Origin: an uncultured Actinomycetota bacterium
Lineage (GTDB): Bacteria; Actinomycetota; Actinomycetes; Actinomycetales; CAWJMD01
DNA: 64,000 nucleotides
Assembly: GCA_963825505.1 (NCBI GenBank)
Contig: CAWGTL010000010.1
Location: forward strand, 128,080-192,079
Direction: 5' to 3'
Every line of letters starts with the position of its first letter. Position 1 is the stretch's first letter. The position numbers and the translations under genes were made by a program. The notes beneath the pieces were generated by a model. The model was not told the DNA's origin. It saw only the letters and a list, made by a program, of their open reading frames with translations, and made no database searches. This document shows, one piece after another, positions 42,465 through 64,000 of this stretch.

Positions 42465-42506
42465 CGCGACAGGACGGAAACTTCCTGAGCCTGTGGGCTT
42501 GTCGCG
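42465..42506 (+). promoter_or_regulatory. Conserved upstream motif CGCGACAGGACGGAAACTTCC plus downstream inverted half TGTCGCG
   Basis: Gap-free alignment to the sites at 59214-59234 and 59707-59727, with 14 of 21 positions invariant. CGCGACA pairs with TGTCGCG and CAGGA pairs with TCCTG. Confidence 0.55.
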
Positions 42507-42533
42507 GTGCGCACCTCGCTGCACCGTGTGCTC

Positions 42534-43475
42534 ATGAGCACAGAGACCTTCCAGGGGGCGGACGTCCAGGCGCTGCGCGCGCTGCGGACGACGATGCAGG
42601 GCGTCGTGGCCGAGCTGCAGCGCTCGGCCGCCACGACGTCGTCGGCGCTGGACGCGCTGGCGTGGGCCGGCAACGACCAGTCGTCGTTCCGCACGGCGTG
42701 GACCGAGTGGTTCCGTCCGGTGATGCAGTCGGTGTCCGACGCCGTCACCCGCGCCGCCGACCAGGTGGAGGCCAACGCGGCCGACCAGGAGCGGGCCAGC
42801 GCCGACAACGGCACCGGTGGGACCGGCGGCACGACGGGCACGACCCTCGGCGCCCGCACCGACCCGGACCTCGGCGCGCTGAGCCGGCAGTACGAGTCCA
42901 ACGGCGACCCCGGCACGGTCTCCACCGGACGCGGCGACCGCGGCGGCGTCTCCTACGGGATGTACCAGTTCTCGTCCACCCAGGGCTCGGTGCAGGAGTT
43001 CGTCCGCGGGCTGCGCGACACGCACCCGGAGTACTACGCGGCCCTGAACGGGTTGCGCCCCGACACCCCCGAGTTCAACGCGGCCTGGCGCGAGCTCGCG
43101 CGCACCGACCCGACGGGCTTCGCCGCCGCGCAGCACGAGGCGATCGAGCGCACCCACTACACGCCGCAGCTCACGGCGACCGAGCAGCGGATCCCGGGCC
43201 TGGACTTCGAGCAGCGCTCGCCGGCACTGCGCGACGTGCTGTGGTCGACGTCGGTGCAGCACCGGCGGATGACCGACGACATCTTCGAGCGGGCGCTGGC
43301 CGGCCGCGACCCGGCGACGTTGACCGACGCCGAGATCATCCGGTCCGTCTACGCAGAGCGCGGGCGCGACAACGGGATGGCGTACTTCTCCGGCAGCAGC
43401 GCGGCCGTCAGGCGGGGTGTGGTCAACCGGTTCCGCAACGAGGAGCGCGACGCGCTGGGGATGCTCGGGCAGTAG
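42534..43475 (+). CDS. WXG100-like N-terminal domain fused to a lysozyme/chitosanase-fold (VgrG3-C-like) peptidoglycan hydrolase domain
   Basis: N-terminus is paralogous to the WXG100 protein at 60874 (LAWAGNDQSSFRTAW, ADQERAS). Gly/Thr linker. C-terminal YESNGDPGTVSTGRGDRGGVSYGMYQFSS and AYFSGSSAAVRRGVVNRFRNE. ATG 42534 preferred; GTG 42507 is possible. Confidence 0.65.
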   Translation: MSTETFQGADVQALRALRTTMQGVVAELQRSAATTSSALDALAWAGNDQSSFRTAWTEWFRPVMQSVSDAVTRAADQVEANAADQERASADNGTGGTGGTTGTTLGARTDPDLGALSRQYESNGDPGTVSTGRGDRGGVSYGMYQFSSTQGSVQEFVRGLRDTHPEYYAALNGLRPDTPEFNAAWRELARTDPTGFAAAQHEAIERTHYTPQLTATEQRIPGLDFEQRSPALRDVLWSTSVQHRRMTDDIFERALAGRDPATLTDAEIIRSVYAERGRDNGMAYFSGSSAAVRRGVVNRFRNEERDALGMLGQ

Positions 43476-58363: not shown

Positions 58364-59200
58364 ATGCTGAGGGTGACGCTGCGGGGGGCGGGGGTGCCGG
58401 CCGCCGTGCTGGGCACGGGGGACCGGCTGCTGTTCGGCCGGGCACCGGGTGAGCGCCTCGACGGGCTCGACCCCGACTCCCAGCTGAGGCTCACCACGCT
58501 CGCGCTGCCCCGCACCGCGCCGCACGTCTCGCGGGTGGTCGGCGAGGTCGTCGTGGGCGAGGAGATGGTGCGGCTGCGCTGGCACGGGTCGACCGAGGCC
58601 CAGCTGTCGAGCCTGTTCGACGCCCCAGGCGGCGCGCGCAGGGTCGCTCTGGCGCAGGGGATGTCGGCCTTCCTCGACGAGGGCGAGAACCACCTGCTGC
58701 TGCTGCGCGGCCGGGAGACCGCGCAGGGCCGGTACACCGACCTCGTCCTGGTGGTCGTCGTCGACGACGTGGAGCAGGAGCAGGCGACCGAGCCCGGCGA
58801 GGAGCCCTCGGCCGACCTCGACGCCGCTCCCACGGCCCCCGCCCCCCGGCTGGAACCCCGGTCGCGGGAGTGGTTCGTCGCGCTGGCGCTGGCGGAGCCG
58901 TGGCTCACGGGGGCCGACGACTACCCCCGCCCGCCCTCGAACCGCGAGGTGTACGAACGGGTCCGACGCTGGCACGGCTACGCCTGGAACCTCGACCGCG
59001 CCCAGCGGGTCGACGACGCCATCCGGGTCGTGGCCCGGATGGCGTTCGGGCCGCAGGACGACCCGTTCACCTCCACCGCCGGCCGGGTCCAGAACGTGCG
59101 GTTCGCGGTCGGCCGCCGCGCGGCGGAGGTGCGGCTGGTCACGGTCGACCAGCTCGAGCAGGTCGAGGCCGAGGCGGCCGCCCGTCCGGTCCGCCACTGA
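58364..59200 (+). CDS. Hypothetical protein with an FHA-like N-terminal region
   Basis: GDRLLFGRAPGERLD ... ALPRTAPHVSRVVGEVVV ... WHGSTEAQL resembles the FHA core (GR ... SR.H ... GS). Acidic linker. C-terminal domain not recognised. Confidence 0.45.
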   Translation: MLRVTLRGAGVPAAVLGTGDRLLFGRAPGERLDGLDPDSQLRLTTLALPRTAPHVSRVVGEVVVGEEMVRLRWHGSTEAQLSSLFDAPGGARRVALAQGMSAFLDEGENHLLLLRGRETAQGRYTDLVLVVVVDDVEQEQATEPGEEPSADLDAAPTAPAPRLEPRSREWFVALALAEPWLTGADDYPRPPSNREVYERVRRWHGYAWNLDRAQRVDDAIRVVARMAFGPQDDPFTSTAGRVQNVRFAVGRRAAEVRLVTVDQLEQVEAEAAARPVRH

Positions 59201-59213
59201 CGAGATCCGGTTC

Positions 59214-59253
59214 GGCGACAGGGAGGAACGTTCCGGCGCGCTCGCCCTGTCGC
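59214..59253 (+). promoter_or_regulatory. Conserved upstream motif GGCGACAGGGAGGAACGTTCC plus inverted half CCCTGTCGC
   Basis: Shares the G.GACAG-N3-GGAA-N2-TTCC core with the sites at 42465 and 59707. GCGACAGGG pairs with CCCTGTCGC (9 bp). The inner GGAACGTTCC is itself a perfect palindrome. Confidence 0.55.
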
Positions 59254-59313
59254 GCCGCCCTCGCGCCGTGCGAGGGTCGGCGGACGCCAGCAGAGACGAC
59301 ACCGGGAGGGGCC

Positions 59314-59604
59314 ATGGTCGACAGGAGCCAGTTCTACGGGATGGACACCGAGAGCTCGCGCGAGGGAGCCCGGCAGCTCGACTCCGGCGCGACCGAGGTG
59401 CAGGGCATGCTCGATCTCGCCAACCAGGCGATCCAGGCGCTGCGCAGCTCGCCGTACGGCGCTGCCGGCCCCGGCTTCGCTCAGTGGGACCAGACCTGGA
59501 CCGGCGAGGTCAACCCCCAGCTGCAGCGCGCCGTCGAGAACCTGCGCAGCAACGCCTCCGAGCTGAACCGGCGCGCGCAGATGCAGGAGGAGGCCAGCGC
59601 CTGA
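59314..59604 (+). CDS. WXG100-like small helical protein (96 aa)
   Basis: GGGAGGGG SD. W-x-G at QTWTGEV. Predicted helix-turn-helix length. C-terminal QMQEEASA is similar to the DDQERASS of the 60874 protein. Confidence 0.7.
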   Translation: MVDRSQFYGMDTESSREGARQLDSGATEVQGMLDLANQAIQALRSSPYGAAGPGFAQWDQTWTGEVNPQLQRAVENLRSNASELNRRAQMQEEASA

Positions 59605-59627
59605 CGCGCCTCCACCGCTCTCCCCTT

Positions 59628-59657
59628 CAGCCGCCGTCCCGACCGGGACGGCGGCTG
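59628..59657 (+). terminator. Perfect 13-bp stem hairpin CAGCCGCCGTCCC-GACC-GGGACGGCGGCTG after the first WXG gene
   Basis: Begins 24 nt after the stop codon. Followed by a CTGCTGCTGTGCTGC tract with only scattered T and no clean U-run. Confidence 0.55.
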
Positions 59658-59706
59658 CTGCTGTGCTGCAACGGTTCTTGCTCTGGCACCGGGTCGGGCG
59701 CCGATC

Positions 59707-59727
59707 CGGGACAGACCGGAACCTTCC
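59707..59727 (+). promoter_or_regulatory. Third copy of the conserved motif: CGGGACAGACCGGAACCTTCC
   Basis: Same strand and order as the other two copies, 98 nt upstream of ATG 59825. A CCTGTC inverted half follows at 59760-59765. Confidence 0.5.
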
Positions 59728-59824
59728 ACCCCTCCCGCTCTGGCGCGGGACCGCCCCGACCTGTCAGCGTCTGCGGCACAGGCAGTTTCGAGGCTCGGTA
59801 CGCCGGGCGAGGGGAGGTGGGACG

Positions 59825-60799
59825 ATGAGCGGCTTCCAGGGATCCGACGTCGACGCACTCGACCAGATCGCGGGCTGGACCAAGAAGGCCGCGGACTTCG
59901 CCACGCTCGTGGCCGGCGTCCTGGAGGCGGTCGCCACCGCTCTCGAGGCGTTCTCGTGGACCGGCTGGGCCGCCGCCTTCGCCAGGTACCTGCGCACCGT
60001 CGTGATCCCGTGGGTCAGGTCGGCGGCGAAGATGCTCAGCTCTGCCTCGCAGTTCCTGGCGCTGATGAGCGGCAAGCAGAAGGACGCCAGTGGCGACACC
60101 CCGCAGGTGTCCACCGGCAGCACTCCGGGCTACCAGGTGCCCAGGCTCCCGACCGTGAGCACGGGCGACGCCCCGCAGGTCGCGGCGATCACGATCACCT
60201 TCGGCTCGCCGGGCGCGAGCGCTGGGTCCACCGGCGTCCAGGTGACCCCACCCTCGCTCACCGGCACCGGCCCGGTCGTCCCCGGCCAGGTGGTCGGGAG
60301 CACCGGGGCGGGCGCCACCGTCACCGTCCCGGCCGCCGCGCTGACAGGTGCGCTGACAGGCGGGGGGCTGGCTCGTGGGGGGCTGGCCGGCGGCGCACTC
60401 ACGGGTGCGGCGCTCGCCCGCGAGACCACCGGCGGCCTGTCCTCCGGCGGCGGGTCGGGCTCCGGCCTCGGCTACCGGACCCCCTCCGGCGCGGGCGCCC
60501 TCACGGGCAGCGGCGACGGCGTCGCCGACACCGCCCTCGGCGGCGGGACCGGTGGTGGGAACGGCACCTCGTCCGGCCTGTTCACCGCCGGCTCGGGCGC
60601 GTCGGGCTCGTTCGACCGGACCCTGCCCGCGACCCCGTCCGACCAGGGAGACGGCCCCGGCGCCGCGGTCCTGGCGGCACCCCTCGGCGTGCTCGGCCTC
60701 GGAGCGGCGGCGCTGTCCGCCCACGCGGCCCGCACGGCGACCCAGACCCCGGAGTCCGACGGAGGGAGCGTCCAGGACGACGGCAGCACGACCGCATGA
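59825..60799 (+). CDS. WXG-like N-terminal domain protein with a Gly/Thr-rich repeat region and a C-terminal TM anchor
   Basis: MSGFQGSDVDALDQIAGW... with FSWTGWAAAF (W-x-G) and QKDAS at the end of the domain. ALTGALTGGGLARGGLAGGALTGAAL repeats. C-terminal AAVLAAPLGVLGLGAAALSA. Confidence 0.65.
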   Translation: MSGFQGSDVDALDQIAGWTKKAADFATLVAGVLEAVATALEAFSWTGWAAAFARYLRTVVIPWVRSAAKMLSSASQFLALMSGKQKDASGDTPQVSTGSTPGYQVPRLPTVSTGDAPQVAAITITFGSPGASAGSTGVQVTPPSLTGTGPVVPGQVVGSTGAGATVTVPAAALTGALTGGGLARGGLAGGALTGAALARETTGGLSSGGGSGSGLGYRTPSGAGALTGSGDGVADTALGGGTGGGNGTSSGLFTAGSGASGSFDRTLPATPSDQGDGPGAAVLAAPLGVLGLGAAALSAHAARTATQTPESDGGSVQDDGSTTA

Positions 60800-60873
60800 C
60801 GCACGCGCAGTAGCTCGACGCCCGTTTCCACATCCGGTTCCACCAGACACCCACGCACAGAAGGAGAACCACC

Positions 60874-61140
60874 ATGAGCACCGTCCTCGGGATGGACATC
60901 AACGCCGCACGCGACCTCGTCCGCGTGATGAGCTCCGACGCCGACACGATCACCCAGCTCTCCGGCCGGCTGACCAACCAGCTGGAGCAGACCACCTGGT
61001 TCGGCCCGGACGCCAACGCCTTCCGGTCGGCCTGGCAGGGCGAGTACGTGCCCGCCCTGCAGCGGATCGTCCAGGCCCTGCAGGAGAACTCCCAGGCGCT
61101 GTCGGCCCAGGCGGACGACCAGGAGCGCGCGTCGTCCTGA
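60874..61140 (+). CDS. WXG100 family (EsxA/EsxB-like) protein, 88 aa
   Basis: AAGGAGAA SD. TTWFGPDANAFRSAWQGEY contains W-x-G at mid-length. Sits directly upstream of the FtsK-like ATPase gene. Confidence 0.85.
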   Translation: MSTVLGMDINAARDLVRVMSSDADTITQLSGRLTNQLEQTTWFGPDANAFRSAWQGEYVPALQRIVQALQENSQALSAQADDQERASS

Positions 61141-61245
61141 TCGGCCGCTGAACCCGCCGACCGGCGGCGGACCCGCCCTCGCGGCGGCCGCCGCCGGCCG
61201 GCACGTCCGGCCCCGTCTCTCACGCACTCGTCCAGGAGGTCCGCC

Positions 61246-64000
61246 GTGTGGCGACTGAGCATCGTGCCCACCGAGGGCACGGGCCTGACCGGCGCCGACG
61301 TCGTCGTGCACGCCGAGCCGGGCGCCCGCGTGGTCGACCTGGCGGGTGTGCTGGCCGAGCACCTCGGCGGAGGGGCCGCCGCCGCCCCGCCGCTCCTGGT
61401 CCCGCTCGTGGACGGCGGGGTGTGGCCGGCCGACCGGCGGCTGTTCGACTGCGGCCTGCGCCAGGGGGACGTGCTCGAGGTGACCTCCGTGCCGGCCTCG
61501 TGGCGCACGACGCCGGCGCGTACCCGGCGCACCACCGCCACCGTGCGGGTCGTGGCCGGACCCGACGCCGGGAAGAGCGTCCGGGTCGACGGCGACAGCC
61601 TCACCGTCGGACGCAGCCGCGAGTGCACGGTGCGGCTGTCGGACCCGCTCGTCAGCCGGGTGCACACCCGCGTCCTGCTCAGCGGCGGGCCGGTGGTCAG
61701 CGACGAGGGCTCTGCCCACGGCACCCGGGTCGGTGGCCACGAGGTGGTGCGCCCGCAGGCGGTCGGGTGGGGGGAGCGCGTCGACCTCGGCGGCAGCGCC
61801 TTCGTGGTCGAGCCGCCCGACGGCGGCGCGGCCCGGGCCGACGACGGCGTCGCCGTCCTGCGCCCGCCGCGCTTCGGCGAGGCGGTCGACGAGCTCGAGC
61901 TCGACACCCCGACCCCACCCAGCCGCCCGAAGCCGCAGCCGCCCCCGTGGGCGATGCTCGCCATGCCGGTGGTGCTCGGCGGCGCGCTGTTCCTCTCCGG
62001 CCGCAGCACCTACGCGCTGGTGTTCGTCGTCGGCTGGCCGGTGATCATGCTCATCACCTGGCTGACCGCCCGGCGCCAGCAGCGCAAGGAGTTCGAGCGC
62101 GAGCTCGCGGCCTGGCGGGAGGACATGCAGGCCGTGCTCGACCAGCTCGACCACGCTGCGACCGTCCAGCGCGAGCACGCCGAGGACGACGACCCCGACG
62201 TCGACGTCGTGCGGTCCCGGGTGGTCTCGCGCGACCGCCGGCTCTGGGTGCGCGGTCCCGACGACGACGACTTCGGCCTGGTCCGCGTGGGCCGCGGCGG
62301 GGTGCCCGCCAAGGTCACCGGCAAGCGGTCCTCCAGCGGGGACCGCGAGGTGCTGCTCGAGGCCCGCGAGCTGCTGTCGTCGCGCACCGTCCTGGAGCAG
62401 ATGCCGGTGACCGTGCCGGTGCTCGAGCACGGCGTGGTCGCGGTGACCGGCGACCCGGACGAGCTCGACGCCGCCGTCCGCGCGATGGTGCTGCGGCTCG
62501 CCGGAGGCCACTCACCGGCCGAGGTGCAGCTCGTCGCGCTGCTCGGCCGCGGCCGCGAGCACCTGGAGAGCTGGCTGCGCTGGCTGCCGCACTGCGCACC
62601 GCGCAGCGGCGGGGTCGCGCCGGTGGCGGTGGGTCCCGTCGAGGCCACGCCTCTGCTCGAGGTGCTCGCGGCGGAGGGCGCCGGACGCGGGCGGACGGTC
62701 TGCCTGGTCGACGCCGGCTGCGGTCTGCCGCGGCGCGTGGTCGAGGCCGCAGCGGCCGCAGGGCCCGAGCAGGGCCTGCACCTGATCTGGTTCGGGACGG
62801 CGGCCGACGAGATCCCCTCCCGCACAGCCGTGCACGTCGACCTCCGGGCGAAGCGGGTCGAGCAGGCCGGTCGACGCGGACGGGTGGAGCTCGACAGCAC
62901 CGACGCGGTCGGGCTCGTCCCCGCCTGGCACGCCGCGCGCGGCATGACCGGCTACCAGGACGCCGTCGCGCTCGTGCAGCCCGACTCGGCCCTGCCCGAG
63001 CAGGTGCGCCTGCCGGACCTCGGCACCGACCTGCGCAGCTGCGACGACGTCGACACCGTGCTCGGCCGCTGGACCGCGGCGCGCGGCCTGCGGGCCCAGA
63101 TCGGTTCCGGCGTCGACGGTGTCGTCACGCTCGACCTGCGCGAGGACGGCCCGCACGGTCTGGTCGCGGGGACGACCGGCTCGGGCAAGTCCGAGCTCCT
63201 GCAGACCCTGATCAGCTCGCTCGCGGTGAACAACCCGCCGACGCGGATCACCTTCCTGCTGGTCGACTACAAGGGCGGCGCGGCGTTCCGCGAGTGCGCC
63301 GACCTGCCCCACACGGTCGGGTACATCACCGACCTCACGCCGGCACTGGTGCAACGGGCGCTGGTGTCGCTGCACGCCGAGCTGACCCACCGCGAGGGCC
63401 TGCTCGCCGAGCACGGCGCCAAGGACCTGGTCGCGCTCGAGCGCGACCACCCGGAGGTGGCTCCACCCAGCCTGCTCATCTGCGTGGACGAGTTCGCCGC
63501 GCTCACCGCCGAGGTGCCGGACTTCGTCGACGGGATGGTGTCGATCGCCCAGCGGGGCCGCTCGCTCGGGATGCACATGCTGCTCGCCACGCAGCGCCCG
63601 GCCGGCGTCGTGACGCCCCAGATCAAGGCGAACACCGACCTGCGCATCGCCCTGCGGGTGGCCTCCGGCGACGACAGCACCGACGTCATCGACGCGCCCG
63701 ACGCGGCCCAGCTCTCCCGCCGCACGCCCGGACGCGCCTGGGTGCGGCGCACGGGTCACGGCACCACCGAGCTGGTCCAGGTGGCGTGGGTCGGCGGGCG
63801 CGAGCCCCTGCACGACGCCGCCGCCACCGTGCGGGTGGCACCGTTCTCGGCGCGCGACCTCGGCGGCGACGGCCAGGTGGCCGGCGAGCGCGTGCACCCG
63901 CGCTCGGACCTCGACCGCCTCGTCGGGACGACCACGGCCGCCTTCGTGCGGTCGGGCCTGCCCCAGCCGCGCCGGCCCTGGCTTCCGGCGCTCGGCCAGG
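61246..64000 (+). CDS. Type VII secretion FtsK/SpoIIIE-family ATPase (EssC/EccC-like) with N-terminal beta-grasp-like and FHA domains; 3' end outside the window
   Basis: CAGGAGG SD with GTG 61246. The frame stays open to the window end (checked codon by codon). FHA domain: LTVGRSRECTVRLSDPLVSRVHTRVLL...SDEGSAHGTRVGG. Two TM segments (AMLAMPVVLGGALFL, ALVFVVGWPVIMLITWL). ATPase motifs: Walker A GTTGSGKSE, Walker B LLICVDEFAAL, and LLATQRP. Confidence 0.85.
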   Translation, partial: MWRLSIVPTEGTGLTGADVVVHAEPGARVVDLAGVLAEHLGGGAAAAPPLLVPLVDGGVWPADRRLFDCGLRQGDVLEVTSVPASWRTTPARTRRTTATVRVVAGPDAGKSVRVDGDSLTVGRSRECTVRLSDPLVSRVHTRVLLSGGPVVSDEGSAHGTRVGGHEVVRPQAVGWGERVDLGGSAFVVEPPDGGAARADDGVAVLRPPRFGEAVDELELDTPTPPSRPKPQPPPWAMLAMPVVLGGALFLSGRSTYALVFVVGWPVIMLITWLTARRQQRKEFERELAAWREDMQAVLDQLDHAATVQREHAEDDDPDVDVVRSRVVSRDRRLWVRGPDDDDFGLVRVGRGGVPAKVTGKRSSSGDREVLLEARELLSSRTVLEQMPVTVPVLEHGVVAVTGDPDELDAAVRAMVLRLAGGHSPAEVQLVALLGRGREHLESWLRWLPHCAPRSGGVAPVAVGPVEATPLLEVLAAEGAGRGRTVCLVDAGCGLPRRVVEAAAAAGPEQGLHLIWFGTAADEIPSRTAVHVDLRAKRVEQAGRRGRVELDSTDAVGLVPAWHAARGMTGYQDAVALVQPDSALPEQVRLPDLGTDLRSCDDVDTVLGRWTAARGLRAQIGSGVDGVVTLDLREDGPHGLVAGTTGSGKSELLQTLISSLAVNNPPTRITFLLVDYKGGAAFRECADLPHTVGYITDLTPALVQRALVSLHAELTHREGLLAEHGAKDLVALERDHPEVAPPSLLICVDEFAALTAEVPDFVDGMVSIAQRGRSLGMHMLLATQRPAGVVTPQIKANTDLRIALRVASGDDSTDVIDAPDAAQLSRRTPGRAWVRRTGHGTTELVQVAWVGGREPLHDAAATVRVAPFSARDLGGDGQVAGERVHPRSDLDRLVGTTTAAFVRSGLPQPRRPWLPALGQ

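Follow-up and report, generated by a model that had tools for sequence, protein, structure and literature searches.

A predicted promoter module built on a GGAA-NN-TTCC palindrome marks substrate and toxin genes of an actinobacterial type VII secretion system

The 64,000-nucleotide stretch of DNA analyzed here (the window; contig CAWGTL010000010.1 of assembly GCA_963825505.1) comes from an uncultured Actinomycetota bacterium and carries a type VII secretion system (T7SS) locus in which a short motif, GACAG-N3-GGAA-N2-TTCC, recurs. Judged from sequence, this element is not a leader structure. It is a conserved promoter module and defines a regulon: a palindrome followed by weak −35 and −10 boxes spans ~55 bp and appears to mark the substrate and toxin genes of one T7SS. 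The module itself, its fixed geometry, its conservation, its restriction to one type of locus and its power to predict new sites are direct observations. We consider it probable (about 0.72) that every copy forms the upstream part of a composite promoter, apparently activator-dependent and read by the housekeeping sigma factor. The module would thereby provide a sequence signature for the regulon of a widespread, little-studied actinobacterial T7SS, which has an FHA-domain EccC and is linked to Esr-type genes.

A rare element directed at WXG-type genes

The window holds three copies of GACAG-N3-GGAA-N2-TTCC, all on the + strand, at 42468-42485 (site 1), 59217-59234 (site 2) and 59710-59727 (site 3), and every one is directed at a WXG-type gene. 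By chance 0.03 copies would be expected, at least three copies arose in 0 of 100 dinucleotide-preserving shuffles, and these three are the sole copies in the whole 3.85-Mb assembly, across which the bare core GGAANNTTCC occurs just 10 times. The copies that a first-pass annotation had described in the 59214 and 59707 regions are thus real and read as described, and its view of the motif as a non-random cis element common to T7SS substrate genes is borne out. The parts of the three sites are listed below; ranks are those given genome-wide by a weight matrix built from other genera, and the sister genome is a metagenome-assembled genome of the same genus (G006).

59215..59221, + strand: site 2, 5′ extension GCGACAG (contains GACAG); altered in the sister-genome ortholog
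59225..59234, + strand: site 2, core palindrome GGAACGTTCC; predicted span about −59 to −50; rank 2
59247..59252, + strand: site 2, −35-like box CTGTCG, 12 nt past TTCC; same in the sister genome
59272..59277, + strand: site 2, −10-like box GAGGGT, 37 nt past TTCC; predicted start at about 59283-59285
59710..59731, + strand: site 3, GACAG, ACC, core GGAACCTTCC (59718-59727) and ACCC; rank 1; identical in the sister genome
59740..59745, + strand: site 3, −35-like box CTGGCG, 12 nt past TTCC, as also in Occultella, Cellulomonas and Georgenia
59765..59770, + strand: site 3, −10-like box CAGCGT, 37 nt past TTCC; predicted start at about 59776-59778
42468..42527, + strand: site 1 (distal), from GACAG through core GGAAACTTCC (42476-42485) to the −10-like box; rank 3
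42499-42504 and 42522-42527, + strand: site 1, −35-like box TTGTCG and −10-like box CACCGT, the latter followed after 6 nt by the ATG at 42534

With its start codon 6 nt past the −10-like box, the toxin gene behind site 1 is predicted to be leaderless.

The GCGACAG extension is, in this genus, the reverse complement of the −35-like CTGTCGC. Around the cores of sites 1 and 2 (42465-42505 and 59215-59253) stand inverted arms of 6-7 bp, 32-34 bp apart, which are partly kept in the sister genome and absent from other genera; these could be a coincidence or a second, genus-specific operator.

The core is conserved across genera and its surroundings are not

We compared the window with nine other genomes, from Occultella, Cellulomonas, Georgenia, Nocardioides, Phycicoccus and Phytoactinopolyspora together with the sister genome. 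The sister genome carries orthologs of all three sites, and in alignments between the two, identity is lost upstream of the element and returns at the element. At its site 2, the sister genome has CGCACGGGGA in place of GCGACAGGGA, and the two middle bases of the palindrome are CC instead of CG; the perfect 10-bp palindrome noted earlier is therefore present in the window, and its central CG is not a conserved feature. The nearest locus outside the genus, in Occultella glacieicola (EccC 59% identical), has four copies of GGAA-NN-TTCC-ACCC within 19 kb, none of them with GACAG, and these precede a WXG-toxin-like gene, a WXG gene, a Gly-rich gene and eccC. Like arrangements occur in O. aeris, O. 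gossypii, Cellulomonas iranensis, Georgenia phoenicis, Nocardioides marinquilinus and Phycicoccus avicenniae, and further in two Phytoactinopolyspora species and one more genome.

A logo of 26 sites, numbered from the core, shows GGAA and TTCC in all sites (26/26) around a free central NN. The 5′ flank is dominated by C at −1 (24 sites), G at −2 (19) and G at −3 (18), and the 3′ flank by A at +11 (19), C at +12 (24), C at +13 (24) and C at +14 (21). A second block, C-T-G-G (CTGG/CTGT), occupies +23 to +26, with T+24 in 24/26, and the sequence separating the conserved blocks varies freely, even between Occultella species. Further 5′, a at −7 (17), c at −6 (17) and a at −5 (13) form a weak remnant of GACAG. 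By this comparison GACAG, which had been counted as part of the element, is a semi-conserved, lineage-variable 5′ extension of the GGAA-NN-TTCC core. The extended site, GGGC-GGAA-NN-TTCC-ACCC, is an 18-bp imperfect palindrome with half-sites one helical turn apart. Invariant GGAA and TTCC, largely symmetric gGGC and ACCC flanks and a free NN are the pattern of a dimeric operator, and the inverted symmetry fits the dimeric regulator site that the first-pass annotation had suggested.

The FHA-like gene, which encodes a 278-aa protein, runs into the core at its 3′ end in Cellulomonas and Nocardioides, and the core is translated there in two different frames (...NPEGSTP... and ...RKVPP...), which indicates a constraint on the DNA and not on the protein.

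The surroundings of the module in Occultella offer two further observations. In O. glacieicola (L043:8228-8350), a copy of the last ~41 codons of the FHA-like gene (78% identity) immediately precedes the module of the WXG gene, and the complete gene lies 1.3 kb off; the O. aeris and O. gossypii versions are complete and adjoin the module. The duplication looks like the footprint of an insertion that kept the promoter context. Elsewhere in Occultella (G028:C21:26885-26980; L043:886-981), a single core, GGAAGGTTCC, apparently serves two divergent promoters, with a WXG-toxin-like gene on one side and, on the opposite strand, TAAGGT 38 nt off and a leaderless ATG 7 nt later.

A −10 box at a fixed distance from the core

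In all 30 gene-directed sites examined (30/30, from 10 genomes), a box of the form nAnnnT lies 36-38 nt past TTCC, so that the A at position 2 and the T at position 6 of a housekeeping-sigma −10 element are found at a fixed place in every site. The chance of such a match is ~0.05 per site for nAnnnT and 0.007 for TAnnnT, and the stricter form was found in 20/23 sites outside the window genus. In most genera the box reads TAGCGT, TAGGTT or TACCGT, and the CAGCGT of site 3 aligns with the TAGCGT of sites in Occultella, Cellulomonas and Phycicoccus. A −35-like CTGK box stands 12-13 nt past TTCC. The promoter reading had earlier been set aside for a GTC that is missing at the third copy; that objection lapses, since the real −10 box is the one 36-38 nt past TTCC.

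The distance from this box to the genes is informative as well. The start codon lies 6-9 nt past the −10 box at six sites: window site 1 and five in relatives, which include the sites of a Ser/Thr kinase gene and of a distal WXG-toxin gene. Because such a spacing behind a TANNNT −10 box characterizes leaderless mRNAs in actinobacteria (Cortes et al. 2013, PMC3898074), transcripts of this kind are indicated at these sites. With starts predicted 6-9 nt past the −10 box, the core would lie at about −59 to −50.

The transcription starts, activation as against repression, and the identity of the factor are inferred. The module runs from a semi-conserved aCA extension (GACAG in this genus) to the invariant GGAA-NN-TTCC, often extended to GGGC-GGAA-NN-TTCC-ACCC, followed by 12-13 free nt, the −35-like cTGK, 17-19 free nt and the −10 box nAnnnT, with transcription predicted to start 6-9 nt further on. 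A dimeric factor would bind the core and recruit RNA polymerase to the weak −35 and −10 boxes or stabilise it there, and its binding would turn on the dispersed genes of one T7SS regulon jointly. In the window, a promoter at 59225 would drive the WXG gene at 59314, with a hairpin at 59628 after it; a promoter at 59718 would drive the Gly-rich gene and, probably, WXG100 and eccC behind it; and a promoter at 42476 would drive the leaderless toxin gene. This would correct the transcription-unit map of the locus to two separate promoters with a hairpin between them, plus a leaderless toxin gene.

Several points weigh against the composite promoter. The −10 boxes of this genus (CACCGT, GAGGGT and CAGCGT) have no first T, a generic sigma-70 scan called no promoter, and taking CTGKnC as the −35 hexamer leaves a spacer of 19 nt, which is long. 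Sites 1 and 2 are without the ACCC flank and have lower weight-matrix scores. The starts were placed by prediction; one soil metatranscriptome contig covers 59295-59478, and it is uninformative on starts because the DNA contigs break at the same ends. Activation is preferred over repression solely from the position of the site and the weakness of the boxes. Finally, no DNA-binding protein was identified, and the 278-aa protein gave no helix-turn-helix match in Foldseek, Pfam or NCBIfam searches.

The module predicts new sites and is restricted to one type of locus

We trained a weight matrix on 23 sites, none of them from the window genus, and scanned ~7.7 million genome positions. The three highest ranks genome-wide fell to window sites 3, 2 and 1 (scores 37.8, 24.3 and 19.1). 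Rank 4 (score 18.5) fell outside the window, at C3:37678 (C3:37678-37736), where the module reads gacgagtc-GGAACCTTCC ... CACCCT and is followed after 6 nt by an ATG. The gene that it precedes is leaderless; its product of 271 aa joins a WXG-like N-terminus to a C39/BtrH-like peptidase domain and is, by its sequence, a candidate new distal T7SS toxin. Only the weight matrix picked up this site; the GACAG pattern had missed it because GACGAG stands in place of GACAG. The module thus appears able to find distal effector genes, such as the peptidoglycan hydrolase gene 17 kb away from the locus and this C39-like peptidase toxin gene on another contig.

Across seven genomes, the pattern GGAANNTTCC-N36-38-TANNNT gave 22 matches versus 1 in the control, and the matches were grouped at T7SS loci, with a few distal ones. 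The core was absent from T7SS loci that do not have the 278-aa gene, namely a second locus in this genome (contig C2) and loci in three relatives. The 278-aa gene itself was found in 3/31 relatives and in 2/151 genomes sampled across the class.

Other patterns were less useful. An order-wide scan of 401 genomes with the full GACAG pattern returned mostly matches within coding sequences and was dropped, GACAG being too lineage-specific, and a looser pattern ending in NANNNT gave background only. Two look-alikes of the GACAG pattern proved unrelated: one (L005, G009:C1:2634369) is a SigH-type GGAAC-N17-CGTT promoter before an hsp20-like gene, and the other (L011, G151:C1:283573) is a repeated TGGAACGTTCCA operator before a LacI-family gene. 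A bare core, gggc-GGAACGTTCC, also lies at C10:193777-193786, 1.7 kb past the window end, 73 nt past the eccC stop and ~100 nt ahead of a 779-aa beta-propeller-like gene; we rejected it as a module, as it is without the −35/−10 geometry.

Alternative explanations for the element

The first-pass annotation had embedded the copies in structured leaders, and on such a reading the motif would pair with its inverted half into hairpins of the 5′ untranslated region, which would control translation or termination. The sequences behind this idea are present as described: at site 2, the inverted half CCCTGTCGC (59245-59253) gives a 9-bp inverted repeat, GCGACAGGG/CCCTGTCGC, and a second hairpin with a 7-bp stem, CCCTCGC/GCGAGGG, lies at 59258-59276, while GCGACA/TGTCGC arms occur at site 1 as well and site 2 could be transcribed by polymerase that reads through from the FHA-like gene. 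As structures, however, the two site-2 stems do not hold. In the sister genome their 5′ arms are altered (GCGACAGGG to CGCACGGGG and CCCTCGC to CCCGCAC) and their 3′ arms are identical, so that pairing is lost with no compensation. What was taken for the 3′ arm of the first stem, CCCTGTCGC, is itself the −35-like box, and the second hairpin shares part of its 3′ arm with the −10-like box GAGGGT. Folding energies of the leaders were indistinguishable from those of shuffles (z = −0.62 at site 2, −0.90 at site 3 and −1.66 at site 1), and an Rfam scan found nothing relevant. Other genera have kept the core together with its −35-like and −10 boxes but have not kept the inverted half. Moreover, the element lies upstream of the −10 box and some of the target genes are leaderless; at ~50-59 bp upstream of the predicted start, it is outside any leader from its own promoter. 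We regard a structured leader or attenuator as extremely improbable.

A promoter of the SigM type, for an extracytoplasmic function (ECF) sigma factor, would take GGAAC as its −35 box and GTC as its −10, in parallel to the control of mycobacterial ESX-4 by SigM. GGAAC is indeed found in 2/3 window sites, with GTC 19-20 nt downstream at sites 1 and 2, and SigM promoters with a GGAACCG −35 drive esx genes together with dispersed effector genes (PMC13491425). Against this, the position after GGAA is C in just 8/26 sites and G in 13/26, so the AAC of an ECF −35 box is not conserved, and the annotation was right to disfavor this box. In most sites GTC is replaced by CTGG, the 19-20-nt spacing exceeds the ECF norm of about 16-18 nt, and a housekeeping-type TAnnnT follows at a fixed distance further 3′, with leaderless starts behind it. 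An ECF promoter is therefore a very unlikely account of these sites. The SigM regulon of M. smegmatis and M. abscessus, which comprises ESX-4 substrates and dispersed effector operons (PMC13491425), is by analogy the closest parallel in logic and not the same kind of site. In both systems a common promoter signature on in-locus T7SS substrate genes and on scattered effector operons lists the regulon. The SigM sites, however, are ECF promoters with a GGAACCG −35 and an ECF-type −10, whereas here AAC is not conserved, TAnnnT lies 36-38 nt past TTCC and a palindrome stands upstream of the −35; in addition, the T7SS described here, unlike ESX-4, has an FHA-domain EccC and is linked to Esr-type genes.

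The core might instead be a repressor operator, or a general element akin to the upstream (UP) element that touches the C-terminal domain of the RNA polymerase alpha subunit. The distal UP subsite of E. coli promoters lies at −59 to −50, which coincides with the predicted span of the core; the core is also the most A/T-rich patch of its region, a palindrome would suit any dimeric factor, and structure and profile searches identified no activator. Yet repressor sites usually overlap the −35, the −10 or the start, and this core lies upstream of a weak −35. A general UP-like element, for its part, would not be limited to ~4 promoters per genome, all of them T7SS-linked, and the GGGC and ACCC flanks are G/C-rich and conserved. 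We consider these two possibilities unlikely, though less so than the leader and ECF readings, and retain the composite, apparently activator-dependent promoter. Its layout resembles that of CRP-type class I promoters in having a symmetric site upstream of a weak −35 and in fixed helical phase to the −10; it differs in that the center here is near −54.5 and not at −61.5 or −41.5, and in the distance between the half-sites, which is 6 bp for the core and 10 bp counting GGGC/ACCC.

Genes and transcription units of the locus

The genes served by the three sites, their neighbors and the intervening hairpin are as follows.

42534..43475, + strand: gene for a WXG-like domain fused to a VgrG3-C-like peptidoglycan hydrolase (PF21277, E 1.8e-53)
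58364..59200, + strand: gene for the 278-aa FHA-fold protein with an orphan five-helix C-domain; first gene of the conserved locus
59314..59604, + strand: WXG100-like gene, 96 aa (PF06013, E 0.002; TIGR03930, E 5.6e-05), with the Shine-Dalgarno sequence GGGAGGGG at 59304-59311
59628..59657, + strand: hairpin with a perfect 13-bp GC-rich stem (59628-59640/59645-59657), between the WXG gene and site 3
59825..60799, + strand: Gly-rich gene, 324 aa, with a WXG-like N-terminus; ATG at 59825
60874..61140, + strand: WXG100 gene, 88 aa (PF06013, E 2.3e-05), without a module of its own
61246..64000, + strand: gene for an EccC/EssC-type ATPase (FtsK_SpoIIIE, E 6e-35) with an N-terminal FHA domain (E 1.4e-08), without a module of its own

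The product of the 42534 gene is, by its sequence, a candidate T7SS toxin. The WXG100-like gene at 59314 shares 38-41% identity with its Occultella ortholog, and the Gly-rich gene at 59825, which had no match in a Pfam search, is 39% identical over 175 residues to an Occultella gene that likewise stands behind a module. As previously noted, the genes at 60874 and 61246 lack the motif, as the interval 60650-61300 contains no core with up to one mismatch. Transcripts from site 3 probably also cover the WXG100 gene at 60874; the eccC orthologs in Occultella and Georgenia each have a module. Downstream of eccC are genes for a beta-propeller-like protein (weak match), a bpMoxR protein (PF20030), a DUF58 protein and a transglutaminase (Transglut_core).

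The hairpin at 59628 is confirmed: its 13-bp stem folds at −31.9 kcal/mol (z = −5.06), 0/200 shuffles fold as well, and in the sister genome it is kept through a C-to-T change that yields a G-U pair. It is terminator-like but has no U tract, and a consensus terminator scan makes no call. Its place between the WXG gene and the site-3 promoter fits two transcription units. A further fold lies between the WXG100 gene and eccC, in a spacer of 105 nt (61141-61245) that is extremely GC-rich and forms a long imperfect hairpin (−56.8 kcal/mol); substrate and ATPase genes may be set apart here by an attenuator or a processing site.

A candidate trans-acting protein and the link to Esr signaling

The 278-aa gene is the most conserved of the locus, with 73% identity to its Occultella ortholog and 65-76% identity in Cellulomonas, Georgenia, Nocardioides, Phycicoccus, Phytoactinopolyspora and others, and it always lies just upstream of the first module. 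The protein has no Pfam or NCBIfam match. In its AlphaFold2 model (pLDDT 84.6), the N-domain resembles FHA and SMAD-MH2 folds, whereas the five-helix C-domain has no structural match in the PDB (best E 1.1) and no Pfam signal; the C-domain family comprises 32 clusters among 1.8 billion representatives and occurs in no other domain architectures. Because structure and profile searches showed no DNA binding, we do not claim this protein as the regulator; it is a candidate for either a regulator or an output protein. In the sister genome (G006:C11:217682-218513), the FHA-like gene matches as two pieces in different frames (residues 1-51 and 45-277), through either a frameshift or an assembly error.

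The genes downstream of eccC resemble the Esr-type threat-sensing set, whose linkage to Esx has been described throughout the Actinomycetales (Wang et al., bioRxiv 2026, PMC13622651). The Esr-controlled Esx locus of Schaalia odontolytica described there is, like the present one, an Actinomycetales Esx locus by MoxR, vWA/DUF58, transglutaminase, beta-propeller and FHA genes, with a small WXG-like gene and then a Gly-rich substrate gene. In S. odontolytica esx induction is transcriptional, and how phosphorylation of EsrG, an FHA output protein, alters transcription is not known, according to the authors; their work differs from ours in that it names no cis element or transcription factor (PMC13622651). 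Our literature search found no paper describing the present module. A tentative proposal, which we put forward as doubtful, is that the module is the missing cis target of Esr threat-sensing and that the 278-aa protein is a new kind of phospho-threonine-controlled activator, which would bind GGGC-GGAA-NN-TTCC-ACCC or bridge the site to RNA polymerase and, once a competitor or epibiont has been sensed, would induce the T7SS substrates along with the dispersed toxins. Whichever protein binds it, the module could serve as DNA bait for a factor that couples threat sensing through Ser/Thr phosphorylation to esx transcription.

In the stretch examined around this locus, no kinase gene was found. In two Occultella species (G549:C36:27062, L078; G548:C21:58995, L082), a module-like site lies within the T7SS locus ahead of a Ser/Thr protein-kinase-like gene whose start codon is 9 nt past the −10 box, an arrangement that would tie expression of the kinase to the same regulon.

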